Both the position numbers and the translations under genes were made by a program. A stretch of 64,000 nt of DNA, from assembly GCA_038823825.1 (NCBI GenBank), contig JAWBCC010000003.1:69351-133350 (forward strand), given 5' to 3'. The notes below the pieces were generated by a model. It worked only from the letters and a program-made list of their open reading frames with translations. It ran no database searches and was not told the DNA's origin. The stretch is from Candidatus Hadarchaeales archaeon. Lineage in GTDB: Archaea; Hadarchaeota; Hadarchaeia; Hadarchaeales; Hadarchaeaceae. Positions 4,101 through 28,269 of the stretch are shown in pieces. How positions within the stretch are numbered: position 1 is the stretch's first letter; every line of letters starts with the position of its first letter.

Positions 4101-7028
4101 AACAAACTCGAGAATAACGTTTGGTATGGGTTGTTCGTCAGCGGCTACCAGATGGACTACTACGACCACGATATCGACAACTCGAACGAACTCAACGGAA
4201 AACCGATTCTCTATCTGGTGGGAGAAAACAACATAGTGATTAACCAAGACAACGATCCGGGCTTTCTAGGTCTCGTAGGTCTGGAGAATGTGAGGGCGGA
4301 AAATCTACAACCGGAATCTATTCTTCTCGTATTTACCGAAAACGTTTTGCTTAGAAATCATGCCGCACGCAGTCTCATTATGTGTTTTTCTGAAAACTGT
4401 AGACTAGAAAATAGCATCTCCGAGAACGGCATGTTTGGCATTTTAATTTGGTGGTCTAGAAATCTAACACTCCGAGCGAACCAAGCAAGAAACTGTCTCT
4501 ATAATTTTGGCGTCGAAGGATGGGAGCTTCCTCATTACCTACATGATATTGATAACTCGAACTCGGTAAACGGGAAACCGGTCATCTATCTGATAAACGA
4601 AAACAACATCACGATTGAGCAGGGCGATCAGCCGGGTTACTTGGGCCTCATTAATCTGAGCAGCGCGAAGGTTAAAGATGTCAAATTTGAGAAAAACTGT
4701 CAGGGAATTCTGCTTTTCAGCGTAGAGAACATAGAAATCGAGAATGTCGATCTCAAAGCCAACTGGTTAGGTCTGGAGGCCAGCTTTTTGAAAGGTGGCG
4801 AGGTTAGCAACAACAGGATCGAAAATAACCTTGAAGGTTGCGTAATCCGGGATTCGAATAGCAATCTTTTCCATTCGAACATAGTGAGGAATAACCAAGA
4901 AGATGGTTTTTTGGTGAAAACTTCGGAAAACATTGTTTTCAGCGGAAACTTCGTTGAGAACAGCAATTATGGTATTAATGCATCCGAAACGGACAACATT
5001 ATCATCACCGGGAACACAATAGAGCACACCTCAGAGTTTGGAATATACCTCGATATGATTTTAGGTGGCAGCGTGACTTTCAACAATTTGCGGAACAATC
5101 AAACCGGAATTAGAGTTGACAGCGGCAGTCGATTGGTTATTTCCTACAACGTTATTGAGAACAGCTCGGATCGAGATATCATATTTAATGGAGAAAATTC
5201 TGTTTTCGAGGCAAACGTCTACACAACAGCAGACGGCATTCCTCACATACATTCAGTTTCTGTTACGAACATCACGCAGACATCTGCAACGATAACTTGG
5301 GTTACTGATGAGGACTCAACAACCGTTGTAGAATACGGACCAACAACGGCATACGGATACACCGCCACCGATGGTGTGACGAAAAACCATCAGGTGAACC
5401 TCTCCAACCTTTCACCTGGAACAATCTACCACTTCCGCGTCCTTTCAACCGACAGTGAAAACAACCTTGAGATATCAAGGGACTTCACCTTCATGACGGC
5501 TTCACCTCCACCTCCACCGCCCCCACCGCCTCCTCCACCTGCCCAGATCTCAACATCCATAACGATCGAGCCATTTGCCTTCTCCATTGTCTCAGGAGGT
5601 TCTAGAGAGATAACAGCCATTCTGAGGGATAACGGAGGGAACCCGCTTTCCGGAAAGACGATATCGTGGAGCACAACCGCTGGAACAATAACCCAGACGA
5701 GCGTGACAGACAACCTTGGGAGGGCAATCGCAACCTTCACGGCTCCTGTTGTCACGCGAGTGGAAAATGTGACTATCACGGCAACATTTGCTGGTGATGC
5801 AAGCTATTTGGGGAGTCAGGCAAACGCCCTATGTACGGTTTCTCCAACTCCTCTCATCCCAACAACCTTGAGAATTTCACCGCCAAGTTTCACAGTCAGA
5901 GTTGGTGGAAGGACAACACTGACCGCAATCCTCTTGGATAACGCTGGAAATCCGCTCCAAGGGAAGCAGATAGTTTGGAGCACAAATTCCGGTTCGATTG
6001 AACCGATGAGCGGTCTCACGGACAACTACGGGAGAATGGAGGTGACGTTTTTCGCACCGTCGGTCAGCGGATCTGTTGAAATCGGAGCTATGTTCGCAGG
6101 AGATTCCACACATACTGGAAGCCAAGCTGCATGTGAGGGAACCGTTTCCCCTCTTCAGGCCAGGATAGACATAACTCCTGATGTCATCTACAGAGGTTCC
6201 CTGCCACGCTGGATCTTCTGCTACATAGAGATCCCGGAGGAGAATGTGGAAGAGATAGATGTTGGCAGCGTTAGGCTTCAGCAAATTCCTGTTGATCCTA
6301 GCGCTCCGACGTCAGTCGGAGATCATGACGGGAACGGAATCCCAGACATTCTTCTAGGATTCAGCTCCCAGGCTCTTGCGCTTCCAGATTCCCCGGGCAT
6401 TCTGCAACTTTCCGTCATCGGATTCGTTAAAGGACTGGAGTTCAAAGGCACAACCGCTGTCCTTTACACAACCATTTCAGAAAACTTGAAGCCGATGATT
6501 TTTATTTTAGAAAACCTCCAGCCCGGCTCCTGGCCGGTTTTCTTGGAAAACATCTCTCTAAACCGGATTGACATCATCCTCGAGAACTATAGGGAAAGAG
6601 CCCAGCTCTTTGTTCTAGAACTTTTCAGTCCTCCGGAGGGAATTCCTTCGGCCCCAGGAATAGTCTACAGATATCTCTTGATAACCGTGGAGAACCTGGA
6701 GGAGGTAGAAAACGTTTCCCTGACTTTTGCCGTAAGCCGCTCTTGGATTTCCTCCTCAAACATCTCTGAAAATCTGATTTTCCTAAAGAGATTCGACGCA
6801 TCTGAAAACATATGGGAAAACATACCGATCACGTTGGTCGGAGAAGATGAAAGCTACGTCTACTTCCGTGCAAACTTGCGAGGTTTCTCTCTTTTTGCTA
6901 TCTCCGGTCTCCCCGCAGCTGCGCCTAAACCAGAGGCCAAGCCAAGGACTGAGATCCTGATAGCTGTGATCGTCGTCATTATCATAATCCTTCTTTTTAT
7001 CCTAATCTCTCTTAGGAGAAGGCAGTGA
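1110..7028 (+). CDS. Giant secreted cell-surface protein (1972 aa). It has a signal peptide and many right-handed parallel beta-helix (PbH1/NosD-like) repeats. A ~130-aa module is present three times. These are followed by an FN3 domain, a poly-proline linker, two bacterial-Ig-like (Big) domains and a C-terminal TM anchor with a basic tail.
   Basis: Repeated N-rich motifs NNxxxGIYLxxSxNN throughout. The module HDIDNSNxxNGKPILYLxxENNxxINQDNxxGxLGL occurs at aa ~305, ~1015 and ~1150. VTNITQTSATITWVTDED...YHFRV is FN3-like. SPPPPPPPPPPPPPA follows. Two ITAILxDNxGNPLxGKxIxWST Ig-like repeats follow. The C-terminus is ...ILIAVIVVIIIILLFILISLRRRQ. The real start is probably the in-frame GTG at 1185 (signal peptide VLSTFFGTLLLISLLAFSVSFVFLFSARTVSA), because a TATA-like tttaaata lies at 1127-1134 inside the annotated 5' end. 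Confidence 0.8.
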   Translation: MLNKRCLNTPKGIGFGANVDESGSNVLSTFFGTLLLISLLAFSVSFVFLFSARTVSASPDSHAPIYIVGNENFTPANGVRSGSGTETDPYIIENWEIDASTGHGIHIKNTTAYFVIRNVLVENGSGAYYGIYLENVVNGRLSNNIVGNNECGIYLYSSDNNTLSGNVVENNETGIYLDNSNSNFLFGNILANNGTGILLIYSENNTLSGNNLENNEYYGVDLYYSDNNTISGNNIERSWDTGICIDESSENNYLSNNQIRQSDYGFYFYYSGNNFLENNLVENSSYSAIWIDHSENIKMRKNVMKLGPSLVIQGGYLFHFLHDIDNSNLANGKPILYLTGKENNLVINQDNKVGWLGLVNSENMRVENIVVESILLAFTSKSKIENVMVENGYYAIELFKSSNNRILRSYIARGLYGIYLQNSPNNLISSCELERSYYSVCVTYSDNIEISNNIVRIASLGIYLYQCDNMVIAGNTIRDIENFAGVESFKLTNSRISNNSFINVSAQYVIVSYGYSENISITGNIIGGGGNYYGIYTEHWNEAFICGNTIENNVVAGIYLHSPENCTIENNILRNNPTGISLSYNAKSNKISGNWLENNNNSSLSITSYSDNNRIVNNTIKKSSEMRINWSNFITVENNTVEDSSGFAYLYSSDNNLISNNKITNVISGITMSTSCEYNRIENNFITKVATSGVLLMSTNCQWNKISGNKIENSNWGIEVSYKNNEIFSNVVKFSSKGIYVYGQSDNTTIFGNILENNEEGIRVSNSKAEITGNDLKGNTYGIYLATKTTTVLHNTIVDGNYGIYSYYSENILIENNVIERNLLAGIYFDSSKSNLIENTKIEGNVQYGIYLFYSDNNRILNNDILSSYQGMYLYQSKDAVISGNRVENNEQGIYLMYSSKDNILNNTIRSNKFGVLIVWASLNNIVENNEVDSNRTGVYLFGSKSNILRSNKILWSTDTGIGVYNNAELNRLENNTCENNAFGIRLDTAKKTILRGNKLENNVWYGLFVSGYQMDYYDHDIDNSNELNGKPILYLVGENNIVINQDNDPGFLGLVGLENVRAENLQPESILLVFTENVLLRNHAARSLIMCFSENCRLENSISENGMFGILIWWSRNLTLRANQARNCLYNFGVEGWELPHYLHDIDNSNSVNGKPVIYLINENNITIEQGDQPGYLGLINLSSAKVKDVKFEKNCQGILLFSVENIEIENVDLKANWLGLEASFLKGGEVSNNRIENNLEGCVIRDSNSNLFHSNIVRNNQEDGFLVKTSENIVFSGNFVENSNYGINASETDNIIITGNTIEHTSEFGIYLDMILGGSVTFNNLRNNQTGIRVDSGSRLVISYNVIENSSDRDIIFNGENSVFEANVYTTADGIPHIHSVSVTNITQTSATITWVTDEDSTTVVEYGPTTAYGYTATDGVTKNHQVNLSNLSPGTIYHFRVLSTDSENNLEISRDFTFMTASPPPPPPPPPPPPAQISTSITIEPFAFSIVSGGSREITAILRDNGGNPLSGKTISWSTTAGTITQTSVTDNLGRAIATFTAPVVTRVENVTITATFAGDASYLGSQANALCTVSPTPLIPTTLRISPPSFTVRVGGRTTLTAILLDNAGNPLQGKQIVWSTNSGSIEPMSGLTDNYGRMEVTFFAPSVSGSVEIGAMFAGDSTHTGSQAACEGTVSPLQARIDITPDVIYRGSLPRWIFCYIEIPEENVEEIDVGSVRLQQIPVDPSAPTSVGDHDGNGIPDILLGFSSQALALPDSPGILQLSVIGFVKGLEFKGTTAVLYTTISENLKPMIFILENLQPGSWPVFLENISLNRIDIILENYRERAQLFVLELFSPPEGIPSAPGIVYRYLLITVENLEEVENVSLTFAVSRSWISSSNISENLIFLKRFDASENIWENIPITLVGEDESYVYFRANLRGFSLFAISGLPAAAPKPEAKPRTEILIAVIVVIIIILLFILISLRRRQ

Positions 7029-16806: not shown

Positions 16807-17916
16807 ATGAAAAGAGTGGGTGTTGCGGAGCTTCCTCTTCATGGCGGGAAATGTCCTCCTTGGCTTTTCGGCAGGATGAAGAGACTTGGGGGCGCTATTG
16901 CGGAGCTCATCGTCAGAGAGTACGGGAGGAAGGAGTTTCTCCGCAGGCTGGGAGATCCGTTTTTCCTCCAGTCTCTTGGTTGTGTTTTGGGTTATGATTG
17001 GCATAGCTCTGGTTTGACGACTGTGACGATGGGTGCTCTTAAAGAGGCACTTGCTGAGAGGGATCTTGGGATAGTCGTCTGCGGCGGAAAGGGTCTGGTT
17101 TCAAGGAGGACGCCGGACGAGATAGAGAAGGTTGCGGAGAAGTTCTCTTTCTCGACCGCGGAGAAGGAGAGGCTGAAGTATGCGAGTAGGATGGTTGCGA
17201 AGGTGGACAATGCTTGTGTTCAGGATGGATATCAGCTTTACCATCATACTTTCGTTTTGAGTGAGGATGGGGACTGGGCGGTTGTTCAGCAGGGGATGAG
17301 GGAGAAGTTTGCTAGGCGGTATCATTGGATATCGGAGGGTTTGAAGAGCTTCGTGGAGGAGCCGCATTCGGGGATAGCTGGAGAGAGAAAGGAGGATGTT
17401 GTTTTGGATATGACGGCTGAGGAGAGCGAAGAGGCGAGGAAGACGAGCGTGGATTTGGTGAGGGAGAACCCGAGGAGACTTCTCTCTTATGTTAGGGGTG
17501 CGGAGCAGAAGCTTTTGGATGAGTATCTGGAGAAGAAGCCGGAGGTTAAGGTTCTTCTCATGCCTGCGGGGCACAGGATATCGGAGTTGACGGAAAAGAC
17601 GATTGCGGCGCTTAAGAGGGCTTACGAGATTCAGCCTGAGAATTATGAAGAGCTAGTGGCAATAAAGGGAATTGGTCCGAAGGCGATAAGGGCTCTTGCT
17701 CTTGTCTCAGCGGTTATCTATGGGAAGCCGCCATCTTGGAAGGATCCTGTGAGGTATAGCTTCGCGCATGGAGGGAAGGACGGGATTCCGTATCCTGTTG
17801 ATAGGAAAACATATCAGACGACGATCGAGATTCTCGAAGAGGCGATAGAGGGAATGGAAGCTGGGAAGGAGGAGAAAATCCGAGCTCTTCGGAGACTTCA
17901 CGAGTTTGTTGGGTAG
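16807..17916 (+). CDS. DUF763 family protein
   Basis: N-terminal MKRVGVAELPLHGGKCPPWLFGRMKRLGG is the signature start of DUF763 (PF05559) proteins. 369 aa. Confidence 0.55.
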   Translation: MKRVGVAELPLHGGKCPPWLFGRMKRLGGAIAELIVREYGRKEFLRRLGDPFFLQSLGCVLGYDWHSSGLTTVTMGALKEALAERDLGIVVCGGKGLVSRRTPDEIEKVAEKFSFSTAEKERLKYASRMVAKVDNACVQDGYQLYHHTFVLSEDGDWAVVQQGMREKFARRYHWISEGLKSFVEEPHSGIAGERKEDVVLDMTAEESEEARKTSVDLVRENPRRLLSYVRGAEQKLLDEYLEKKPEVKVLLMPAGHRISELTEKTIAALKRAYEIQPENYEELVAIKGIGPKAIRALALVSAVIYGKPPSWKDPVRYSFAHGGKDGIPYPVDRKTYQTTIEILEEAIEGMEAGKEEKIRALRRLHEFVG

Positions 17917-18502: not shown

Positions 18503-19306
18503 TTAAGGATGACTGGAGAACACTGGAATCGGGGCCGCTTTCGTACACTTTTCCCGATATCCGCACGCACCACATTTTTCAGCTTTTCTGGTCGGTTTGG
18601 CGTTTCTTCTTTCCTCCCAAAACGGTATCGCCCATTCAAGCTTTTCGATTGCGCTTTCCAGCGAGAAGGGGTACATCCAGACCACTAGTCCAGGAATGTC
18701 GAGATCAACCGGTTCTTTTTTATACAGTTCAGGTATGCTCAGCATGCATATTGTCTGGTTGAGACTCTCGATCTTTTCTCTGTTCAGATCGTGTGGTGCT
18801 ACAGAGATGGCGTATCTCAGCTCAGAAGTTTCGAAGCCAAGGTCATGGAGAAGATATCCGTAAACCAGAGCCTGAACGTGATAACTCGGAAAAATCTTCG
18901 GCTTTCTGGAAAACTTGTATTCGATGAGCAGCGTGGGTTTTCTGCGCCTGAAGAGTATATAGTCCGGTCTACCTGCGATTACGCATTCCCGGTACTTTCC
19001 GAGTAGAAGCATAGAAGCCCCAACCGTTGGCTTTTGAAATATGTCTCTCCAGAGATCCTCTCTTTTTACAGGAATCATGCCGGAAAGAGTCAGTTCATGC
19101 TTTTCATCACCCTTTTCCATTTCTTGGGTCTGAATCTTCCCGTAGGTGTATTTGAGTTCCACTTTTTTCTCGCAATAAAACTGTTCTGCTATCTCCGAGG
19201 CATTCACAAAATGTAGTCCAAAGCGGAGCCTTTTTTTACTCTCTTTTGCTTCCTCCAGCAATGACATAAATCTTCTAAACGGTTTCCACCTTTTCATGGA
19301 ACCCAC
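18503..19306 (-). CDS. Cas4-family (DUF83) PD-(D/E)xK nuclease with a 4-Cys Fe-S cluster. It stands alone; no CRISPR array or other cas genes are in the window.
   Basis: N-terminal Cys in SEIAEQFYCEKK. Nuclease motifs GRPDYILF (D), LLIEYKFS (ExK) and YHVQALVYGYLL (QxxxY). C-terminal CGACGYREKC supplies three more Cys. Confidence 0.7.
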   Translation of the reverse strand: MGSMKRWKPFRRFMSLLEEAKESKKRLRFGLHFVNASEIAEQFYCEKKVELKYTYGKIQTQEMEKGDEKHELTLSGMIPVKREDLWRDIFQKPTVGASMLLLGKYRECVIAGRPDYILFRRRKPTLLIEYKFSRKPKIFPSYHVQALVYGYLLHDLGFETSELRYAISVAPHDLNREKIESLNQTICMLSIPELYKKEPVDLDIPGLVVWMYPFSLESAIEKLEWAIPFWEERRNAKPTRKAEKCGACGYREKCTKAAPIPVFSSHP

Positions 19307-19388: not shown

Positions 19389-19826
19389 TTGTTTATAAAG
19401 GAGCTTCATTCAATCAGCTTGTGGGTTGTTTTGTCAGGTGTTCGGATATCATCGCCGCATGACATATTTGCTCTCGTAAAAGGAGATTTCTCGAATGATA
19501 GCGAAAAGGTGGAGCTTGTAATGCTAGATTCGATGTGCAACGTTCTCGCAAAGGAAATTGTTTCCGAGGGAAGCGAGAACTCGGCTCCCCTCCATCCCCG
19601 TCAAGTGCTTGCCGTGGCTCTTCGATATCCGACGGTTTTCATTGTTCTTGTTCATAACCATCCGAAAGGTTGTGTGGAACCCAGCGAGGAGGATATAGAG
19701 GTAACGAGGAAAATTGCAAAGGCTGGAAAAATGGTTGGCGTTTACCTACTCGATCACCTGATAATTGGGAATGGGAAATTCTTTAGTTTCCTTCAGCAAG
19801 GTCTAATTTCTCCTTCAATTAGATAA
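19389..19826 (+). CDS. RadC-like JAB/MPN domain protein
   Basis: JAMM-type motif VLVHNHPKGCVEPSEEDIEVTRKIAKAGKMVGVYLLDHLII (HxHPxG...S..D) typical of RadC/DUF2466. Divergently transcribed from the Cas4-like gene. TATA-like boxes lie in the 80-bp spacer. Confidence 0.75.
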   Translation: MFIKELHSISLWVVLSGVRISSPHDIFALVKGDFSNDSEKVELVMLDSMCNVLAKEIVSEGSENSAPLHPRQVLAVALRYPTVFIVLVHNHPKGCVEPSEEDIEVTRKIAKAGKMVGVYLLDHLIIGNGKFFSFLQQGLISPSIR

Positions 19827-19864: not shown

Positions 19865-21646
19865 ATGAAAGAAGAAAATTATAAGATTAATTTGGCAAAA
19901 AGAATCGACAGATGGCTAGAAAATAGGCGAATTTTGCTCATGAAAACTTTTGGGACTAGAGAATTTACCCGTAGAGAAGCTACAGATGTCCTAAAAGAAA
20001 AATTTGGTGATGATGAGAAAGCAGTTGCTGCAGTTCTCTCGGAGTTAAAGCATGCTGGTTATCTCGAGATGAGACCGGATCCTACTGACGCCAGGAAAAC
20101 GATATACTGCCTAAAAGAAGTCAAGATTCTCAAGCCTGAAACAGAGGAGCTGACAAGGGATGAGCTAGAATCGCTCCTAAAAAGAGCCGCGGATCTCATA
20201 CGAACTCGTGTTGATTACAAGTTCATTCTCATTCTGCTCTTTCTCAAGAGAATAAGTGATAAGTGGGAGATGGAGTTTAAACAGGTTTACGAGCAGCTTC
20301 TCCGGAATGGACTTTCGGAGGAAGAAGCCGAGGAGGAAGCTAAGAGCAGCATCTACCACGAGTTTGATTTGCCTGAGAAGTTCCTTTGGGAAAACCTTCG
20401 CAAAGATGTGGCTAGACTCCCGGAGAGACTCGCTGAATGTCTCAAAACCCTCGCCGAACGCAACCCGGAGTTGAAGGATGTGGTGGATAGGGGAGATTTT
20501 CTCCAGTTTGCGAGAAGTTCGGAAAATGCGGAGATTTTGAGGCAGCTTGTTGAACTCTTCAGTTCTCGCAAGCTCCACCACGTTTCTCCCGATGTGCTCG
20601 GAGACGCGTATGAATGGGTTTTGAGGTACTTTGCTCCGGAAAAGGCGAAAGAGGGAGAAATCTACACACCAAGGGAGGTCATAAAACTGCTCGTTGAGAT
20701 TTTGAATCCGAAATCTGGAGAATCTGTTTATGATCCAGCGTGCGGATCGGGTGGAATGCTCATTTTGTCGTTCAAGAATGTGGAGGAAAAGGAGGGGAGG
20801 GAGGCAACCCGAAAGCTCTCCTTGTACGGACAGGAGGCAAACCGGGAGATTTTCGCTCTCTGCAAAATGAATATGTACATCCACGATATTAGGGATGTCA
20901 ACATTGAGTGGGGTGATACGCTTCTCTATCCAAAGTTCATTGAGGGGAACAGGCCAAAGACTTTCGACGTTGTGATGGCGAATCCACCTTGGAATCAGGA
21001 TGGTTATCACGAGGAGGTTCTGAAGAAGGGAGAGTTCTGGGGAGAGAGGTTTGTCTACGGTTTCCCGCCCAAACAGTCTGCGGACTGGGCATGGATTCAG
21101 CATATGCTGGCTTCCGCCGACGGGAAAAACGGAAGGGTTGGGGTTGTTATAGACAACGGTTGTCTGTTCAGGGGAGGGAAGGAGCGGGCAATAAGGGAGA
21201 GGGTGCTGAGAGATGACCTGCTGGAGTGCGTGATCCTTCTGCCGGAGAAGCTCTTTTATAACACCGGAGCCCCGGGAGCCATTCTGATTTTCCGTAAACA
21301 TAAGCCAGCCGAGAGGAAGGGGAAGATCCTGTTCATTAACGCGAGCCAGGAGTATGAGAAGCATCCAGAGGTGAGGAAGCTGAACAGGCTTGGGGAGGCA
21401 AACATAAGGAAGATCGCTGAGGCCTACAGGAACTTCAAGGATGTTGAGGGTTTCGCCAGAGTGGTTTCGCTGGGGGAGGTGAGGGAGAACGATTACAATC
21501 TAAACGTCACGCTGTACGTCTTTCCGGAGGAGAAGGTCGAGGAGATAGACGTGGCGAAGGAGTGGGAGGAACTCCGCAAGATTGAGAAGGAAATTACAGA
21601 GGTTGAGGAGAAGATTCAGGGATATTTGAGGGAGGTTGGAGGTTAA
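19865..21646 (+). CDS. hsdM: Type I restriction-modification system methyltransferase subunit HsdM
   Basis: N6-adenine MTase motifs DPACGSGGML (motif I) and ANPPWNQDGY (motif IV, NPPW). Typical N-terminal HsdM domain. 593 aa. Confidence 0.9.
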   Translation: MKEENYKINLAKRIDRWLENRRILLMKTFGTREFTRREATDVLKEKFGDDEKAVAAVLSELKHAGYLEMRPDPTDARKTIYCLKEVKILKPETEELTRDELESLLKRAADLIRTRVDYKFILILLFLKRISDKWEMEFKQVYEQLLRNGLSEEEAEEEAKSSIYHEFDLPEKFLWENLRKDVARLPERLAECLKTLAERNPELKDVVDRGDFLQFARSSENAEILRQLVELFSSRKLHHVSPDVLGDAYEWVLRYFAPEKAKEGEIYTPREVIKLLVEILNPKSGESVYDPACGSGGMLILSFKNVEEKEGREATRKLSLYGQEANREIFALCKMNMYIHDIRDVNIEWGDTLLYPKFIEGNRPKTFDVVMANPPWNQDGYHEEVLKKGEFWGERFVYGFPPKQSADWAWIQHMLASADGKNGRVGVVIDNGCLFRGGKERAIRERVLRDDLLECVILLPEKLFYNTGAPGAILIFRKHKPAERKGKILFINASQEYEKHPEVRKLNRLGEANIRKIAEAYRNFKDVEGFARVVSLGEVRENDYNLNVTLYVFPEEKVEEIDVAKEWEELRKIEKEITEVEEKIQGYLREVGG

Positions 21647-22301
21647 ACAAATGAAAAGATCAAATGATGAGATTCGCGAGTTAATTCTAAGAGAATTATA
21701 TGAAGTTCACAAAAAAGCTAGGAGTCTAAAAGCCACGGGAAAAAGCATAAGCGAGTTGAAACGCCAACTTAAGAAGCAATATGGACTAAGTGAAAAAGAA
21801 ATTGTGCCCAATCTTGATTTTTTAATCCAATGCGGTTGGGTAAAGGTAGAGAAAGAAACATCCGAGTTTAAAACTCCAAGAGGGTTTATAAAGAAACAGG
21901 AGAAAGGTATCTTCAAAATTTCAGATATGGGTATCAACTATTTTGAAGGACAATCCAAATTCCAAAGGATAGAGAGATCGCTTGCTGGTATAAACATAAC
22001 TAATATAGGTGGGGTCACAGTCTTAGGGGACGGAAATGTAGTTGTAAATGTAAACTATGTTGATTTATACAAAGAACTGTCTATGCTTTCAGAGATCATA
22101 AGAAAAAGTGATCAACTCAAAGATGTTGACAAATTAAACTACATCGCGGAAATTGAAACAATAAAATCCCAGTTGATGAAACCGGAACCTGACAAGAACA
22201 TAATAAAGCAAGCTTGGGAAAAACTAAAGCCACTTGCAACTATTGCTGGCATAGCTTCGTTTTTCGAGCGAGTTGTTAAATTAATGGGGGCATTGTTTTG
22301 A
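21636..22301 (+). CDS. Uncharacterized 221-aa protein embedded between hsdM and hsdS (N-terminal wHTH-like region, C-terminal coiled-coil/Gly-rich region)
   Basis: Overlaps hsdM by 11 nt and hsdS by 4 nt, so it is translationally coupled inside the R-M operon. Very AT-rich coding sequence. No recognizable catalytic motif. Confidence 0.5.
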   Translation: MEVKQMKRSNDEIRELILRELYEVHKKARSLKATGKSISELKRQLKKQYGLSEKEIVPNLDFLIQCGWVKVEKETSEFKTPRGFIKKQEKGIFKISDMGINYFEGQSKFQRIERSLAGINITNIGGVTVLGDGNVVVNVNYVDLYKELSMLSEIIRKSDQLKDVDKLNYIAEIETIKSQLMKPEPDKNIIKQAWEKLKPLATIAGIASFFERVVKLMGALF

Positions 22302-23563
22302 AAACCGGTTACAAACAAACGCCAATCGGTAGTATCCCGAAGGAGTGGGAGGTTGTCAGGCTTGGGGATATTTCTAAGGTATCTTCGGGGAATACAGCAC
22401 CGCAAGATAAAAAATATTTTGAAAATGGGAAATATCCTTTCATAAGAGTTCAGCACCTTAGTACATTGCTAGAAAATAAATATCCTATTATTTGCGATTT
22501 TGTAAATGACTTGGCTGTTGAGGAACTCAAATTGAAAAAATTCAAGAAAGGTTCTATAATATTTCCGAAAAGCGGGGAGTCTATAAGGCTTGAAAAAAGG
22601 GCGATACTAAGAGAGGATTCCTATGTGGTAAACCACTTAGTTGTTGTCGAAGTTTTTTCAAATAACGTAGATACAAACTTTTTATATTATTATTTGTCAA
22701 GCCTCAGAACAAGTAGTTACCTTTCTAAAACTACAATGCCATCACTCAATCTTTCAGTCATTAAATCATTTTTAATCCCCCTCCCACCCCTCCCCGAGCA
22801 ACGTAAGATCGCCGAGATCCTCTCAACAGTCGACCAAGCCATCCAGAAGGTGGACGAAGCCATAGCCCGGACTGAGAGGTTGAAGCGTGGGCTGATGCAG
22901 AGGCTGCTCACCCGGGGTATAGGGCACAGGGAGTTCAAGGACACGGAGATAGGGAGGATTCCGAGGAAGTGGGAGGTTGTCAGGCTTGGAGACAAAAAAA
23001 TTACAGAAGAACTTTTCTACGGTATAACCGCTAAAGCTGTCGATAAGGATACTGGAGTAAAAATGTTGAGAACTACGGATATCAAAGAGTATTCTGTGGA
23101 CTGGGAAAAACTTCCTTTTTGTGAAATCACTGAAAGGAGGGGTAACTTAACTAGATATCTTCTGAAGAAAGGAGACCTGATTGTAGCAAGGGCTGGAACT
23201 GTGGGCGTTTCTATTCTTGTGGATAGAGATTTTGACAACGTGATTTTCGGATCATATCTGATAAAAGTGAAGCTAAAACCAAGCATACATCCAAAATTTG
23301 TTCACTATTTCTTCCAATCCTCACTTTATTGGAAACACCTGCAAAAGGCTCAAGGAAGTACTTTAAAAAACGTAAACCTGCCTTTGTTAAAATCTCTCAA
23401 GATCCCCCTCCCACCCCTCCCCGAGCAGCGCAAGATCGCCGAGATCTTCTCAATCGTCGACAAAAAGCTCGAACTCGAAAGAAAAAGGAAGGAAAAACTC
23501 GAGCGGATCAAGAGGGGTCTGATGAACGATTTGCTCACCGGGAAAAAGAGGGTGAAGATATGA
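22298..23563 (+). CDS. hsdS: Type I R-M specificity subunit HsdS (two target-recognition domains)
   Basis: Duplicated conserved segments: IGSIPKEWEVVRLGD and IGRIPRKWEVVRLGD open the two TRDs. LIPLPPLPEQRKIAEILSTVD and KIPLPPLPEQRKIAEIFSIVD form the central and C-terminal conserved coiled-coil regions. Confidence 0.85.
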   Translation: MKTGYKQTPIGSIPKEWEVVRLGDISKVSSGNTAPQDKKYFENGKYPFIRVQHLSTLLENKYPIICDFVNDLAVEELKLKKFKKGSIIFPKSGESIRLEKRAILREDSYVVNHLVVVEVFSNNVDTNFLYYYLSSLRTSSYLSKTTMPSLNLSVIKSFLIPLPPLPEQRKIAEILSTVDQAIQKVDEAIARTERLKRGLMQRLLTRGIGHREFKDTEIGRIPRKWEVVRLGDKKITEELFYGITAKAVDKDTGVKMLRTTDIKEYSVDWEKLPFCEITERRGNLTRYLLKKGDLIVARAGTVGVSILVDRDFDNVIFGSYLIKVKLKPSIHPKFVHYFFQSSLYWKHLQKAQGSTLKNVNLPLLKSLKIPLPPLPEQRKIAEIFSIVDKKLELERKRKEKLERIKRGLMNDLLTGKKRVKI

Positions 23564-24534
23564 TTGACCAACATTTGGAAAAAGAAAGAGTGATCGTGGA
23601 CGAAAAATTAAAACAAAATGAAGAGACCAAAGTATACGAAATTTTTCGTGAAGTTATGAAGAGTTATCTCGGAGTAGAAATAGAAAAAGAAAAGGCAGGA
23701 CGAATTTTAGAATTTTTCATGACAGTAATGTATAACTTGACTTTGAATCCAAGCGCCATCGTTAGAGGGTACTACCTTTGCGCAGAGCAAGATTATGAAG
23801 CCGCTAAGTTATTGAGTAAAAAATTTCCCTCCCTCGCCGTTTTTCATTTACAACAGACCGTAGAAAAAATAACTAAAGCTTACGCGCTCCACATGGGATT
23901 GATAAAAGAAGAAGAATCGTATAAAAAACGAGGAAATAAAGTCGGGACCGAAGTTGTTGGTCATATCTCACCTAAGGCTTTTATTTTGTTGTTGAAGAAA
24001 AGAGGCGCTGCAGAATTCGTCGATACGGTTTTTCTTGCATGTCCAGAAATTCCCAAAATAACTGTTAAAGAAGTTCTTCAAAAATTCGAAAAATTACTAC
24101 AAAAAACGGATGAATTGGCAAAACTCTCAAAAAATGAAATAAACCATTTTATAAAAAGATGCGAAGACATCCAAGACGCCATTAGAAAAATTGACATCAG
24201 GAAAACAAGGGAAAATTTCAAACGCCTCAAAGTAGGGTTTATTGCAAGACTAAGATCTGCGGTTTCACCAGAGATAGTTGAAGATATCAAGAAAAAATTT
24301 AACGCGATAGAAAGGAAGATCGGTTCAATAATCAATGAACTTCTAACGTTTTCGCAACTATATGCTCTGGCGATAATCACCTTTCCGCACTTCTCCTACA
24401 GTCGATACCCTGGAGGCAAAATAACATTTGCTGACTATCACGAAGGGCTGGGTATAGTAGATTCTCTCGATGATATTTTGATCTCTATCGGTTCTATTAT
24501 GAAAAGTCTAGAAAAAATTTGTGCGAGAGGGTGA
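23560..24534 (+). CDS. HEPN-like domain protein (324 aa) inserted between hsdS and hsdR, in the PrrC position
   Basis: Start ATG at 23560 overlaps the hsdS stop (ATGA). AEQDYEAAKLLSKKFPSLAVFHLQQTVEKITKAYALHMG matches the PF05168-type HEPN N-terminal helix pattern (A..D...A..LL..g.y..a.f.a.Qa.EKalKA). A C-terminal SRYPGG recalls the HEPN RYPd motif but sits after an unusually long ~200-aa insert. Confidence 0.4.
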   Translation: MIDQHLEKERVIVDEKLKQNEETKVYEIFREVMKSYLGVEIEKEKAGRILEFFMTVMYNLTLNPSAIVRGYYLCAEQDYEAAKLLSKKFPSLAVFHLQQTVEKITKAYALHMGLIKEEESYKKRGNKVGTEVVGHISPKAFILLLKKRGAAEFVDTVFLACPEIPKITVKEVLQKFEKLLQKTDELAKLSKNEINHFIKRCEDIQDAIRKIDIRKTRENFKRLKVGFIARLRSAVSPEIVEDIKKKFNAIERKIGSIINELLTFSQLYALAIITFPHFSYSRYPGGKITFADYHEGLGIVDSLDDILISIGSIMKSLEKICARG

Positions 24535-24536
24535 AA

Positions 24537-27500
24537 ATGCCAATCTTTACCGAAAAATCCACTGTTGAAAGCTACATCATAGAAAAGCTGAAGGAAAAAG
24601 GCTGGAAGCATGTTCCCGGAGAAGAATTAGAGCGAGAAGACTACTCCGAACCGCTTTTGGTGAGGCATCTTCTTGAAGCAATCCACAGAATAAACCCCCA
24701 CCTAACCCTGACAAAAAAGGATCTGGACAGAATTCTGCTAGAACTCAGGAGCCTTCCATCCACATTTGATGGTTCCAAGCGACTGCTCAAGTTCCTAAAA
24801 GAAGGAATCCCAATAGAACTGGAAAAAACAGGAGAACTCAGATATGTCTCTCTGCTCGATTACGAAAACCCAAAGGAGAAAAACGAGTTCATCGTAAGCG
24901 ACCAAGTACCTTTCCACGGGCCTAAAGAAAGATGTAGACTTGACATAGTCCTCTACGTAAACGGAATCCCGCTTGTAGCAATAGAGTGCAAAAACCCGAC
25001 CGACCCGACCAGAGACTGGGAAACTGCCTATAAACAGATAAAATCTTACGAAAAGGCTGTCCCAGAACTCTTCAAGTATGTCCAGTTCAGCATAGCCGCC
25101 GCCGCGACCACCAGATATTTCCCGAACGTCTTAGGAGCCGAGGATGTCAAAATCTACTTCCCTAAAGGGAAAGATACTCCCGAGTCCCTGGATCGAACAC
25201 TTGACCTCCTCCTAAATCCAGACGCTCTCCTCGATCTTGTTGCAAACTTCATTTTCGCGAGGGAAGAGCATGGAAAGTTCACAAAAGTTTTGCCCTACTA
25301 CTACCAGTACGAAGGCGCCAACCAAATCTACCAAAGAGTCCTTAACAACCTGTCTGAGAAGGAAAAAAAAGAGAAGGGGTTGATCTGGCATTGGCAGGGT
25401 TCCGGAAAAACCCTCACGATGATTTACGCCGCCCGTAAACTTTACCTTTGCCCCCTGCTTGAAAACCCCACCATCTTCTTCGTCGTCGACAGAGAGGAGC
25501 TTGAGGAGCAACTGTTTAAAGAATTTTCTTTCTTAGACCTCGGCATACCCTCACCTGAGGTCATTTCTTCGATCGAGCACCTCCGTCAGATTCTGACCTA
25601 TGACGAGGGAAGAGGAAAGAGGGGGATGTTCATCACTCTCATTCACAAGTTCGGCGAAAAGCTTGCCGATCTCGTTTTTGAGGACAAGGACATGAAAAAC
25701 ATTTCAAACAGGAGAAACGTCATCGTTTTAATAGACGAGGGACATCGGACGCAGTACGGAGAGTATGCCGGCCGTATGCGAGGCATACTCAAGAAAGCTT
25801 TCTTCTTCGCTTTCACGGGAACTCCTTTCTCCACGAAAAAGAGAGATACCTTCGCCGCTTTTGCTTATCCCGAGGAGGGCGAACTCTATCTTCACAAATA
25901 TTTTGTCCGAGAATCAATTGAAGACGGTTTTACCCTCCCCATTGTTTTCCAGACTAGGATGGAAAAAGAGGTCGGCCTAGAAAAAGAACTACTGGAAGAG
26001 TTTTTGGAGCAAGAGCTGGAGGAAATCACCGAAGAATCCCTCCGCCTCGCCCTAGAAGGAAAAATCAGCAGACGATTGACCCAGATCGTTGTATTCTTTG
26101 AGAATCCAGAAAGAATAGAAAAGATTGCCAGCGATATCGCCACTCATTTCAAGGAAAACGTGGACGGAAAGTTCAAAGGCATGGTTGTGGCGGCTTCAAG
26201 AAAAGCGTGCATCTATTATAAGGAGGCTCTCGATCGGCTGCTGGGACCGGAATACTCCGAGATTGTTATGACGTTCAATCCTCGCACGGACCCCGAACCG
26301 ATCAAATCCTATTACGAAAAGTTGAGGCAGAAATATCATGGCAAGGAGATTGAGGAAATCTGGGATGAGATAATCGAGAAGTTCAAAGAAAGGGAATATC
26401 CGAAAATTTTAATCGTCACGGACAAACTTCTGACAGGTTTTGATGCTCCAATTCTCCAAGTGATGTATCTAGACAAGCCGCTGAAGGAACATAGGCTTCT
26501 TCAAGCAATAGCAAGAACCAATCGTCCATTCAAAGAACTAAAACCAGCGGGTCTCATCATAGACTATGTCGGAATTCTCAAAGAATTCGAAAAAGCCGTG
26601 GCCATTTACGAAAAGCAGGATATTCAGTACGTAGGCTTCAAGCCGGAAGAAAAGATAGATGAGCTTCGAAAGCTTATCAGCGATGCGGAGGAGACCCTTG
26701 AGGGTGTGGATAAAACAAAAACCGATTTTGAAACTCTTAAAGCCGCAGCAAAACTGCTCTTTCATTATCCAGAAAAGCAGAGAAAATTCTCCCAAACGTA
26801 CAAACAGGCTAGAAATCTTTACGAGTTTCTTCTCCCCTTCGGGCTGGACAAGAAGACTGTGGAGAGATTCAAATGGCTGGCCGCAGTCTACAACTTTCAT
26901 CGCCAATGGGTGGAGCAGGAGAAGTCAGAGGAAATGGAAGAAAACTTTAGAAAATTCTATCCAAGAGTTGTTGAGCGCGTTCACAAGGCCATCCAAATAG
27001 AAATGAAAGAAGAGTTTCCAAGTTTAACGCTTGATAAAGAATATCTTGAACGGTTGGGCAGATTGGGTTTAGAAGACCAAGTTTATAACATGGTTTTCGG
27101 TCTAAACAAATATATCCGCGTAGACCGTCCGTTCAGTCCTATTTATGAACCAATCGCCAAACGCGTGGAAAAACTAGTTGAAAGGTGGCGAAACAAAAAG
27201 ATTTCGGTCGAGGAGGCTTATAACGAAGCAGTTTCCATTTTGCAGGAAACGAGAAAAACCGAGGAGAGAATAAAAACGCTCGGATTCTCAGAGCCAGAAT
27301 ACTTCATTCTCAAAGTTCTTGAAAAGGAACTGGGAGAATCTGAGGATCTAGTCCAAGAAGTCCGGAGTCTCTGGAGAAAATGGGAGAAGACTGGAAAAAT
27401 ATTCCCAGGATGGACTCGAAAAATGAGTATCCTAAAGGAACTCGTGCGAGATATAAGAATGTTCATGGTAAAGAAAGGTATCCCACTTAAAAGGAGGGAA

Positions 27501-27545
27501 GAGCTCTGTGAGGAGATCATCAACGGACTCAAGGCCACTTCATAA
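24537..27545 (+). CDS. hsdR: Type I R-M restriction subunit HsdR (SF2 helicase/endonuclease)
   Basis: Walker A WQGSGKT, DEAH-box VLIDEGHRTQ, helicase C-terminal motifs (QAIARTNR), ~1000 aa. Start taken at the ATG at 24537 (MPIFTEK...). Confidence 0.9.
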   Translation: MPIFTEKSTVESYIIEKLKEKGWKHVPGEELEREDYSEPLLVRHLLEAIHRINPHLTLTKKDLDRILLELRSLPSTFDGSKRLLKFLKEGIPIELEKTGELRYVSLLDYENPKEKNEFIVSDQVPFHGPKERCRLDIVLYVNGIPLVAIECKNPTDPTRDWETAYKQIKSYEKAVPELFKYVQFSIAAAATTRYFPNVLGAEDVKIYFPKGKDTPESLDRTLDLLLNPDALLDLVANFIFAREEHGKFTKVLPYYYQYEGANQIYQRVLNNLSEKEKKEKGLIWHWQGSGKTLTMIYAARKLYLCPLLENPTIFFVVDREELEEQLFKEFSFLDLGIPSPEVISSIEHLRQILTYDEGRGKRGMFITLIHKFGEKLADLVFEDKDMKNISNRRNVIVLIDEGHRTQYGEYAGRMRGILKKAFFFAFTGTPFSTKKRDTFAAFAYPEEGELYLHKYFVRESIEDGFTLPIVFQTRMEKEVGLEKELLEEFLEQELEEITEESLRLALEGKISRRLTQIVVFFENPERIEKIASDIATHFKENVDGKFKGMVVAASRKACIYYKEALDRLLGPEYSEIVMTFNPRTDPEPIKSYYEKLRQKYHGKEIEEIWDEIIEKFKEREYPKILIVTDKLLTGFDAPILQVMYLDKPLKEHRLLQAIARTNRPFKELKPAGLIIDYVGILKEFEKAVAIYEKQDIQYVGFKPEEKIDELRKLISDAEETLEGVDKTKTDFETLKAAAKLLFHYPEKQRKFSQTYKQARNLYEFLLPFGLDKKTVERFKWLAAVYNFHRQWVEQEKSEEMEENFRKFYPRVVERVHKAIQIEMKEEFPSLTLDKEYLERLGRLGLEDQVYNMVFGLNKYIRVDRPFSPIYEPIAKRVEKLVERWRNKKISVEEAYNEAVSILQETRKTEERIKTLGFSEPEYFILKVLEKELGESEDLVQEVRSLWRKWEKTGKIFPGWTRKMSILKELVRDIRMFMVKKGIPLKRREELCEEIINGLKATS

Positions 27546-28269
27546 AGTGCTGAGGATAGAAGGAGAAAGCATACCTTATACTGTCGAATGGAGGAAAGTG
27601 AAATATCCGCGTTTGGAACTGAAAACCGGGAAGCTAAAGATAATTCTTCCAAAAGGAGTAAAGGACGAAACACCCATTCTGGAAAGAAATCTCCAGTGGA
27701 TACTTAAAAGGCATGAAGAAATCAAGAGGGCAAAGGAGAACATAGCAAACTCCTTGAGCGGAAATGGGATTCTCATCTTCGGCTCTTTCTATAAAGTCGA
27801 GCCGGGCATACCCCTCGTCATTTTCCTGAACGGGATACAGAAAAAGTTCGACCTGATGAAAGAAAGAGACCAGGTTAAACTAAGAAACTTTCTAAAAAAG
27901 ATTCTGAGAGAGGAGCTGAGGAAGTTAGTGAACCACTATTCATCAAAATTTGGTCTGAGATTCGGAAGAATATACATAAGAAACCAGAAAACAAAATGGG
28001 CAAGTTGTTCCTCCTCGGGTAACCTGAGCTTTAACTTCCGGCTTGTTCACGTACCATATGATATTTTAAAGTATGTTGTCTGTCATGAGGTTCTTCACCT
28101 AGCTGAAAAAGGTCATTCGAAAAAATTCTGGGAAAAAATCAGAGAGGAGTTTCCAAACTACAAAGAGATGGAGAAAAAACTTTTCGAATACTGGTTTTTC
28201 ACGATGGATTCCCAATTTCCAGATATTCGTTTTATTGGAAAGCGAAAAACCTCAAGAAATTTGGAATGA
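27508..28269 (+). CDS. DUF45/YgjP-like (WLM/SprT-like) zinc metallopeptidase, commonly linked to type I R-M hsdR
   Basis: HExxH motif in VVCHEVLHLAEKGHSKKFWEKI. Size and placement immediately after hsdR (overlapping its 3' end) are typical of this family. Confidence 0.7.
   Translation: MRRSSTDSRPLHKVLRIEGESIPYTVEWRKVKYPRLELKTGKLKIILPKGVKDETPILERNLQWILKRHEEIKRAKENIANSLSGNGILIFGSFYKVEPGIPLVIFLNGIQKKFDLMKERDQVKLRNFLKKILREELRKLVNHYSSKFGLRFGRIYIRNQKTKWASCSSSGNLSFNFRLVHVPYDILKYVVCHEVLHLAEKGHSKKFWEKIREEFPNYKEMEKKLFEYWFFTMDSQFPDIRFIGKRKTSRNLE

Follow-up and report, generated by a model that had tools for sequence, protein, structure and literature searches.

What is the protein encoded between hsdS and hsdR in this archaeal restriction-modification (R-M) operon, and does it act in the manner of PrrC, whose gene holds the same position in the E. 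coli prr operon (hsdM-hsdS-prrC-hsdR; PMC3014915)? A previous reading, made from the sequence alone, had proposed a HEPN-like protein in a PrrC-like slot. The window, i.e., the whole stretch of DNA that was analysed, comprises 64,000 nucleotides of a Candidatus Hadarchaeales archaeon.

The host operon and the gene between hsdS and hsdR

The operon is type IC-like, with the order RadC-hsdM-variable cargo-hsdS-X-hsdR-YgjP, where X is the gene under study. The gene order of the window thus bears out the PrrC-like slot. The features are as follows:

19389..19826, + strand: RadC-like JAB gene just upstream of hsdM (PF04002, E = 5.4e-36)
19865..21646, + strand: hsdM, 593 aa (N6_Mtase, E = 1.3e-113; HsdM_N)
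21636..22301, + strand: 221-aa gene in the variable hsdM-hsdS cargo slot (PADLOC candidate-defence family PDC-M14B, E = 2.9e-8)
22298..23563, + strand: hsdS, 421 aa, two target-recognition domains (PF01420, E = 1.3e-51)
23560..24534, + strand: gene of the long HEPN-T protein (ORF, ATGA overlap, homologue clusters, HEPN fold)
24537..27545, + strand: hsdR, 1002 aa from the ATG, type IC-like (HSDR_N, SWI2_SNF2, T1R_D3-like, ResIII)
27508..28269, + strand: YgjP-like metallopeptidase gene, overlapping the 3' end of hsdR (PF01863, E = 1.7e-41)

The combination of N6_Mtase/HsdM_N, two Methylase_S domains and HSDR_N/SWI2_SNF2/T1R_D3-like domains in one operon identifies a type I R-M system. The nearest solved structure to HsdR is the type IC EcoR124I HsdR (E~1e-34). 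An alternative upstream start of hsdR, a TTG at 24519, is also possible. The RadC-like gene occupies the same position in two related loci (L047 and L049), and the YgjP-like gene is the constant last gene of the operon, present in all gene-called loci with a contig that extends past hsdR. The hsdM-hsdS slot of related loci holds TIR+OLD, SLFN/HATPase, PIN_2, EVE/ASCH or DUF3800+TIR genes. Relatives in this HsdR lineage number >2000 proteins at E<=1e-100. When metagenomes were scanned with the HsdR N-terminus as the query, only one near-identical locus was seen among the matches listed. A scan for sigma-70 promoters and terminators was set aside as not informative for an archaeon.

The gene between hsdS and hsdR encodes 324 aa plus a stop codon. 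Its ATG (23560-23562) overlaps the hsdS stop TGA (23561-23563), which confirms the ATGA coupling described from the sequence, and the same 4-nt overlap was called in L001, L004, L006-8, L009, L010, L042, L049 and L050. The hsdR ATG at 24537 lies 2 nt past the stop, with a ribosome-binding-like GGGTGA ahead of it, within the 3' end of the HEPN gene. The GC content is 0.36 in the HEPN gene vs 0.47 in hsdR. An identical protein, annotated as hypothetical, is present in one Ca. Hadarchaeales MAG. The homologues fall into 16 close and >650 distant clusters, and the long-HEPN family as a whole comprises 654 clusters at E<=1e-10, mostly archaeal, with proteins of 240-340 aa. The reading as a chance ORF was rejected, since conservation of its start, length, overlap and residues extends over hundreds of clusters. 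No dedicated model for the family was found in the libraries searched (Pfam, NCBIfam, PADLOC), the PADLOC and NCBIfam searches of the 324-aa protein gave no meaningful match, and tblastn against plasmid and phage collections gave no match.

Fold and conserved residues of the HEPN protein

The gene product belongs to a large, unnamed, mostly archaeal branch of the HEPN-T (PF05168) family. The HEPN core is split by an insertion, and in this clade the protein carries a two-helix N-terminal extension. The layout is as follows:

23560..23754, + strand: residues 1-65, two-helix N-terminal extension (secondary structure: helices 4-37 and 43-60)
23755..24000, + strand: residues 66-147, HEPN helices 1-3 (PF05168 match over residues 75-113; conservation 95-100%)
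24001..24318, + strand: residues 148-253, family-specific helical insertion of 5-6 helices between HEPN helices 3 and 4
24319..24534, + strand: residues 254-324 plus stop, HEPN helices 4-5 (conservation 91-100%)

The PF05168-like helix pattern noted earlier is real, although weak in this copy (E = 1.1e-3, 19.5 bits, below the cutoff of 22). Most homologues exceed the cutoff, with family members scoring 25-39 bits, and a precomputed PF05168 match was present in 12 of 15 close homologues. The AF2 model of the window protein had a pLDDT of 78.6 and a pTM of 0.78, and the four-helix up-and-down HEPN fold was identified in the protein. A PDB profile search with the full-length protein, before the insertion was removed, gave HEPN matches at E~0.15 only; the insert-deleted profile matched ST0689 at 5.7e-6 and TM0613 at 1.9e-5. 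Foldseek analysis of the whole protein against the PDB returned nothing significant. There was no ATPase domain by Pfam, NCBIfam or PADLOC analysis and no Walker A motif, in agreement with the proposal that the protein has no ABC-ATPase.

The N-terminal extension is poorly conserved, with a low column occupancy, and is missing from two divergent slot occupants (L049 and L050). The first HEPN block holds D78, Q98-Q99, E102-K103-x2-K106 (the Ex3K motif) and the invariant His135 (codon 23962-23964). The second holds T274-x-P276-H277-x4-R282-Y283-P284, Y293 and G298-I-V, with His277 at 24388-24390 and Arg282 at 24403-24405; the late SRYPGG motif lies at residues 281-286. The earlier estimate of a ~200-aa insert between the two motif blocks requires correction. 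The blocks lie ~168 aa apart, and the true insertion relative to the solved HEPN protein ST0689 (1wol) is ~105-125 aa, roughly residues 148-253. Furthermore, His135 (in 'GHISP') is part of the HEPN core, and falls between the two blocks that had been described as separated by an insert.

Conservation was computed over 152 cluster representatives. His135 and His277 were conserved in 100%, Tyr283 and Tyr293 in 99%, Arg282 in 97%, and Glu102, Lys103 and Lys106 in 99%; Glu102-x3-Lys106 corresponds to the Ex3[KR] motif that was defined for the second core helix in PMC3710099. His135, Arg282-Tyr283-Pro284, Tyr293 and Glu102/Lys103/Lys106 are also invariant in L049 and L050, and L050 has a leucine in place of the family-specific His277. 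The absence of a conserved basic/His pair, which would have argued against a nuclease, was thus not observed. His135 aligns with His60 of ST0689, and the RYP of the window protein aligns with the SRYPD of ST0689 and the TRYPD of TT1696.

In the literature covered, the Rx4-6H motif is needed by every experimentally proven HEPN RNase (PMC3710099; AbiV work). This motif, which the sequence-only reading had suggested looking for, is absent throughout the protein by a full-length regex search. The residues at +4 to +6 from Arg282 are G, K and I, and His294 of the window protein is not conserved. The Rx4HxY motif with an AMPylated tyrosine is likewise absent, Tyr283 and Tyr293 being in a different sequence context. 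A missing Rx4-6H is typical of the AF0298-type HEPN-T subgroup, for which an alternative site has been proposed that combines the retained Arg, a conserved His on its N-terminal side and Ex3[KR] (PMC3710099). As judged from the alignment, His135 and Arg282 would provide such a site, and His135, His277 and Arg282 are predicted to cluster in 3D on the basis of the ST0689 alignment and the published AF0298 description. It is equally possible that the invariant residues bind a ligand instead of being catalytic. Some motif-lacking HEPN domains are probably non-catalytic binding domains (Anantharaman et al., PMC3710099). No demonstrated RNase with the His+Arg alternative site was found among PF05168-type proteins in the HEPN literature covered.

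Cassette exchange, genomic contexts and competing explanations

We favour, with a probability of about 0.5, the interpretation of the long HEPN-T protein as a PrrC-like, restriction-coupled latent RNase or RNA-targeting effector in a cassette slot, which is plausible. The protein is made together with HsdS and HsdR through the tight coupling on both sides, and its dedicated slot is refilled in related genomes by cassette exchange. Its most likely activity is that of a latent RNase that does not depend on metal, or otherwise of an effector that targets RNA, and it would serve as a second line of defence upon restriction failure in the manner of PrrC, without an ATPase, and with a presumed abortive outcome. 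The inserted helical domain and/or the N-terminal extension may provide docking, sensing and auto-inhibition, and catalysis may be performed by the alternative HEPN-T site, with His135 and Arg282 (together with Tyr283, Tyr293, His277 and Glu102/Lys106) replacing Rx4-6H. One might further speculate that the R-M complex silences the HEPN protein and that the RNA cleaved is tRNA.

The hsdS-X-hsdR arrangement was found with 11 distinct long-HEPN alleles (the window, L001, L004, L006, L009, L010, L014, L026, L042, L049 and L050), and of three close HsdR relatives picked at random, two carried a long HEPN in the slot. Between the L001 and L006 loci, HsdR is 87% identical vs only 37% for the HEPN protein. 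The blastn map showed ~87% DNA identity across hsdR and the flanks; the homology ends in the central region of hsdS and restarts 13 nt into hsdR, with no DNA homology by blastn over the second target-recognition domain (TRD2) of hsdS and the HEPN gene. The central conserved region of hsdS is a recombination breakpoint in these relatives, and the HEPN gene is exchanged as a cassette among related genomes. An initial indication of co-inheritance, a correlation between the divergence of HsdR and that of the HEPN protein (rho 0.77, n = 8), was withdrawn, as the correlation was lost when more loci and all pairs were included (rho 0.12, p = 0.61) and the blastn map shows cassette replacement instead.

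These results bear on whether the protein is instead a non-catalytic accessory subunit that modulates how the type I enzyme assembles or works, for example by gating HsdR loading or restriction alleviation. The HEPN domain would then serve as an adaptor, or as a binding domain for a nucleotide or another small ligand, and would not cleave RNA. The tight, conserved coupling to hsdS and hsdR alike would suit such a subunit, as would the absence of the canonical Rx4-6H and the view of Anantharaman et al. on motif-lacking HEPN domains cited above. However, an accessory subunit should co-diverge with its partners, yet the HEPN gene is replaced as a cassette beside an HsdR of 87% identity. Moreover, the close relative L047 has no HEPN in the slot, and the enzyme therefore does not need it; many family members also have no R-M neighbour. 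We consider this explanation unlikely.

Linkage to R-M genes recurs in other forms, as long-HEPN genes were found next to an EcoEI-type hsdR (L018), type IIG-like genes (L015, L027) and a type III-like system (L045). Other neighbours include defence genes such as SLFN and RES, and one long HEPN is fused to a Cas4/DUF2779 nuclease. Among the members with informative flanks, about one half are not adjacent to any R-M system. The long-HEPN protein alone is probably not freely toxic, because solo copies exist, of which at least one (L043) lies amid housekeeping genes with no candidate antitoxin.

The solo copies, and those beside unrelated defence genes or several R-M types, could point to an autonomous, self-regulated defence or toxin gene with an RloC-like logic, present in the operon only for co-expression and co-mobilisation. 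The R-M complex would then neither bind nor silence the HEPN protein, and its own inserted domain would sense the trigger. An all-vs-all search of the neighbours revealed no conserved partner gene in the solo loci besides R-M components. In a rough NJ tree the R-M-embedded members are intermingled with the solo ones, but the tree is star-like and does not distinguish a single capture into the slot from several. The neighbouring hsdM-hsdS slot is, in addition, a clear cargo bay for unrelated defence genes. Against this, the hsdS-hsdR slot holds a single family in all 11 alleles while the other slot is promiscuous, and the conserved 4-nt hsdS overlap and near-abutting hsdR start suggest a stoichiometric relationship. 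On balance, full autonomy appears doubtful.

The HEPN protein is very improbably the orphan toxin of a HEPN-MNT (type VII-like) toxin-antitoxin system with its nucleotidyltransferase encoded elsewhere. Minimal nucleotidyltransferases (MNTs) are the classical partners of PF05168 HEPN domains (PMC3710099), the tyrosines beside the Arg are invariant and L047 has a wHTH-MNT gene in the same slot. However, no MNT (NTP_transf_2) adjoins any long-HEPN copy in the loci examined. The MNT of L047 replaces the HEPN gene rather than lying alongside it, and phmmer found nothing similar to it in the 64-kb window.

A more specific version of the restriction-coupled effector is also possible, although we hold it only tentatively. 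In a widespread lineage of archaeal type IC-like restriction systems, the junction of hsdS and hsdR would be a dedicated, breakpoint-bounded cassette site that houses a hypervariable HEPN effector free of both an ATPase and Rx4-6H. Its insertion would dock on the restriction complex and read its state, and the non-canonical His/Arg(/His/Tyr) site would cut RNA once restriction is blocked. The HEPN alleles would travel with the hsdS TRD2, such that specificity and back-up effector diversify as a unit.

Significance and comparison with known systems

The idea of a back-up effector is itself not new. HEPN genes inside R-M operons, including those of the PF05168 type, were described with the same interpretation in 2013 (PMC3710099, PMC3632139), the general concept having been published since 2012-2013, and the exchanged HEPN gene fits this long-predicted type of antiviral effector by analogy. 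The experimental basis of 'immunity-suicide coupling', in which HEPN toxins in R-M loci act on restriction failure, is almost entirely PrrC. The long-HEPN family, as a single small ATPase-free protein that is abundant in archaea, is a simple test case that could show whether HEPN-T proteins encoded within R-M loci are indeed nucleases, whether the alternative His+Arg site of classical HEPN domains is catalytic, a question standing since the 2013 survey, and how such an effector stays silent. The operon is also a clear example of conserved anchors (hsdM, the hsdS centre and hsdR) combined with two exchangeable defence slots. Should the more specific version hold, the protein would represent an archaeal counterpart of PrrC with a different mechanism, and a function would be assigned to the alternative HEPN-T active site for the first time.

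Among the closest known systems are the 'classical' HEPN-T domains of the AF0298 (2hsb), TT1696 (1ufb) and ST0689 type, with which the window protein shares the QQxxEKxxKA helix, the (S/T)RYP motif and a conserved His ahead of helix 3. As in AF0298-type HEPN-T proteins, the His of Rx4-6H is missing and the upstream conserved His is kept. These types are ~120-135-aa single domains, often beside or fused with an MNT, whereas the long-HEPN proteins have the ~105-125-aa insertion, usually an N-terminal extension, no MNT partner and an additional near-invariant His277, five residues before the Arg.

AbiV, the abortive-infection HEPN RNase of Lactococcus (PDB 9bj5), is likewise a HEPN defence protein without an ATPase; it stands alone, without R-M linkage. 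It has been grouped with HEPN-T for its alternative His (Anantharaman et al., PMC3710099); however, its rRNase activity needs the RNHKSKH (Rx4-6H-type) segment, which the window protein does not have, and is controlled by the RNA antitoxin abiV2. The HEPN_AbiV model (PF18728) had no match in the window protein, and a weak, sub-threshold match (E = 0.009) in the slot homologue of L049.

RloC is rarely R-M-linked and prrC always is (PMC3458546). The solo long-HEPN members, similarly to RloC, must be self-regulated, but RloC's canonical HEPN motif and its zinc-hook Rad50-like ABC ATPase are absent here.

PrrC is physically silenced by the type IC EcoprrI, and EcoPrrC has the catalytic triad Arg320-Glu324-His356 (PMC1484252). 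Unlike PrrC, the window protein has neither an ABC-type NTPase domain nor an Arg-Glu-His triad, a helical insertion splits its HEPN core, which belongs to the PF05168 (HEPN-T) class, its host is archaeal, and its family also occurs away from R-M systems. Both are nevertheless HEPN-superfamily proteins encoded between hsdS and hsdR of a type IC-like operon, and by analogy the window protein is predicted to share the role of a second-strike effector coupled to restriction.

Operon organization and fold of the HEPN protein

The HEPN gene is a real plus-strand open reading frame encoding 324 aa, and lies in an operon in which all of the genes are on the plus strand and overlap or abut:

19389-19826 (+), RadC-like JAB-domain gene, directly upstream of hsdM
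19865-21646 (+), hsdM
21636-22301 (+), 221-aa gene, PADLOC candidate-defence family PDC-M14B (E = 2.9e-8)
22298-23563 (+), hsdS
23560-24534 (+), HEPN gene
24537-27545 (+), hsdR
27508-28269 (+), YgjP-like metallopeptidase gene (PF01863), overlapping the hsdR 3' end by 38 nt

Coupling to hsdS was confirmed, the HEPN-gene ATG (23560-23562) overlapping the hsdS stop codon TGA (23561-23563). Two bases separate the HEPN-gene stop from the hsdR ATG at 24537, and a Shine-Dalgarno-like GGGTGA is present within the HEPN-gene 3' end. Among solved structures, HsdR was nearest to the type IC enzyme EcoR124I. The RadC-like gene may belong to the operon; it also directly precedes hsdM in the related loci L047 (722-1117) and L049 (1084-1485). 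The ~100 N-terminal residues of HsdM preceding the HsdM_N domain (19865-20164, +) had no Pfam match. The 221-aa gene overlaps both of its neighbours, hsdM and hsdS, and its GC content is low (~0.36). A divergent gene for a 267-aa PD-(D/E)XK/Cas4-like nuclease just upstream of the RadC-hsdM operon (18503-19306, -) may mark the edge of a defence island. Upstream of the island, a gene for a DUF763 protein with a helix-hairpin-helix motif (16807-17916, +; E = 3.9e-135) appears unrelated to the HEPN finding.

The sequence-only reading of the HEPN gene holds, with the size of the insert corrected. The N-terminal HEPN pattern corresponds to a weak match to the Pfam HEPN model PF05168 (residues 75-113, 19.5 bits; cutoff 22), the late SRYPGG motif lies at residues 281-286, and neither a Walker A motif nor an ATPase domain was found in the protein. 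The two motif blocks are present, but the insert of ~200 aa proposed between them is too large; the true insertion is about 105-125 aa, and the invariant HEPN-core His135, in 'GH(I)SP', also lies between the blocks. The protein is laid out as follows:

residues 1-65, N-terminal extension of two helices
residues 66-147, HEPN helices 1-3
residues ~148-253, five or six inserted helices
residues 254-324, HEPN helices 4-5

The AlphaFold2 model was entirely helical (pLDDT 78.6, pTM 0.78). As Foldseek matched nothing significantly over the full length of the protein, and only ~115-125 residues aligned in each structural match, no solved counterpart was found for the insertion. Removal of residues ~149-252 from 24 family members strengthened the profile match to the solved HEPN protein ST0689 from E~0.15 to 5.7e-6, and the same profile matched TM0613 with E = 1.9e-5. 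In this insert-deleted alignment, His135 corresponds to ST0689 His60, and Arg282-Tyr-Pro to ST0689 SRYPD. By fold and motifs, the protein is a member of the HEPN-T (PF05168-type) clade, but an aberrant one, with an insertion, an extra His and no minimal nucleotidyltransferase (MNT) partner.

A word-indexed search identified 15 homologues (31-60% identity) and an identical 'hypothetical' protein from a Candidatus Hadarchaeales MAG. An exhaustive profile search gave 1712, 654 and 97 clusters at 50% identity (E<=1e-3, 1e-10 and 1e-30, respectively); nearly all of these homologues were 240-340 aa, with an alignment spanning the insertion. No dedicated model for this long-HEPN family was present in Pfam, NCBIfam or PADLOC.

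In an alignment of 152 cluster representatives, the conserved residues were His135 and His277 (100% each), Glu102, Lys103, Lys106, Tyr283 and Tyr293 (99% each), Gln99 and Arg282 (97% each), Asp78 and Gln98 (95% each), Gly298, Ile299 and Val300 (93-94%), Thr274 (93%), Pro284 (91%) and Pro276 (90%). There was no Rx4-6H motif anywhere in the 324-aa protein, and the sole His/Arg pair at that spacing is the inverted His277-x4-Arg282. In L050, a more divergent occupant of the hsdS-hsdR interval (the slot), His277 is replaced by Leu; His135, Arg282-Tyr283-Pro284, Tyr293 and the invariant Glu102/Lys103/Lys106 are retained. The same residue pattern was described by Anantharaman et al. for AF0298-type HEPN-T proteins, in which the Arg of Rx4-6H survives without its His; a His further upstream, strongly conserved, was proposed to form an alternative active site together with an Ex3[KR] motif (PMC3710099).

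The hsdS-hsdR slot and cassette exchange

The order hsdS-X-hsdR was found in 11 distinct HEPN alleles, comprising the window and L001, L004, L006, L009, L010, L014 (Nitrososphaeria), L026 (a Caldisericaceae bacterium), L042, L049 and L050. A 4-nt overlap with hsdS was present in every slot locus with genes called, and wherever the contig extended past hsdR, YgjP followed, with which operons of this type consistently end. In contrast, the hsdM-hsdS interval of related operons carries unrelated defence genes (TIR with OLD-type ATPase/TOPRIM; SLFN_AlbA_2/HATPase; PIN_2; EVE/ASCH-like; DUF3800 with TIR).

Three HsdR relatives with 60-61% identity to the window HsdR were sampled. Two carried a long HEPN of the same family (284 or 290 aa, without the N-extension) in the slot, and the third, L047 (HsdR 61% identical), carried three non-HEPN genes (5164-6953). 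The slot is therefore usually, not always, filled by a long HEPN, and the restriction enzyme has no strict need of it. The L047 genes encode proteins of 106 aa, 264 aa (SEC-C/HEAT) and 218 aa; the last joins a wHTH to a minimal nucleotidyltransferase, a family that is the classical partner of HEPN toxins.

The HsdR proteins of L001 and L006 are 87% identical, and their HEPN proteins only 37%. By blastn, L001 and L007 shared ~87-88% DNA identity over the hsdM-hsdS cargo and the hsdS central conserved region, and again over hsdR, ygjP and the chromosomal flank; no DNA homology was detected from the second hsdS target-recognition domain (TRD2) through the entire HEPN gene, and homology restarted 13 nt inside hsdR. 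L006 and L007 were 99.7% identical from mid-hsdS on, with unrelated sequence upstream. Loci otherwise ~87-99.7% identical differ wholly in TRD1 and cargo or in TRD2 and the HEPN gene. The conserved centre of hsdS and the start of hsdR (~13 nt) act as recombination breakpoints (L001 7449-8991 against L007; L006 2837 against L007 2586), and the sharp boundaries indicate that the HEPN gene and TRD2 are exchanged together between conserved anchors. At 0.36, the GC content of the HEPN gene is well under the values for hsdR (0.47) and the flanks (~0.49). An early correlation between HsdR and HEPN divergence in a small sample was lost with more data (all pairs, rho 0.12, p = 0.61).

This pattern is the behaviour of immune specificity or effector modules, unlike that of a co-evolving structural subunit. 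It weakens the alternative that the HEPN protein is a non-catalytic ligand-binding or adaptor subunit, as does the L047 slot without HEPN, and we consider that alternative unlikely.

Contexts outside the operon and proposed mechanism

Elsewhere, the long-HEPN gene lies immediately upstream of an EcoEI-type hsdR, with RhuM nearby (L018), follows YgjP of another type I system (L028), adjoins type IIG-like enzymes (L015, L027) or is first in a type III-like methylase-helicase operon (L045). Without restriction-modification (R-M) genes, it adjoins SLFN or RES toxin genes (L017, L012) or a PD-(D/E)XK nuclease (L013), or stands alone, sometimes amid housekeeping genes (L016, L019, L022, L024, L025, L030, L031, L043). 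In the fusion protein P0102 (770 aa), also without R-M, residues ~493-768 form a complete long-HEPN module, which follows an N-terminal part that is Cas4-like/DUF2779 (RNase_H_2-like). In the Methanoperedens contig L021 (4285-8027), a full hsdS and two hsdS fragments flank the gene, with hsdR ~4 kb downstream; this may represent hsdS shuffling or a rearranged locus.

R-M components aside, neighbour comparison among the solo loci gave no conserved partner gene, and R-M-embedded and solo members were interleaved in a rough, poorly resolved neighbour-joining tree. No long-HEPN matches were found in the plasmid and phage collections. That the gene is a self-regulated defence gene, for which the operon is merely a ride, is doubtful. 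An orphan MNT-HEPN toxin is very improbable; no MNT was found beside the long-HEPN copies at the loci examined.

At a probability of roughly 0.5, we favour a HEPN effector that stays latent until restriction is defeated and that probably acts as a metal-independent RNase. The gene, its fold, conserved residues, slot, coupling and exchange are shown; activity, binding, trigger and outcome are inferred. The effector would be made alongside the restriction enzyme and kept in check by that enzyme and/or its own inserted domain. Defeat of restriction would release it, and RNA would be cleaved at the putative His135/Arg282 site.

That HEPN genes are embedded in R-M operons is already published as a general phenomenon. 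We found neither the long-insert HEPN subfamily, nor its constant position between hsdS and hsdR in archaeal type IC-like operons, nor exchange of the long-HEPN cassette described in the literature. In a type IC operon, PrrC occupies the same slot, and the encoded restriction enzyme physically silences it (PMC3014915, PMC1484252). The window HEPN gene shares this position, but its product has neither the ABC NTPase nor the Arg-Glu-His/Rx4-6H site that define PrrC; its overall logic would be that of PrrC, minus the NTPase.
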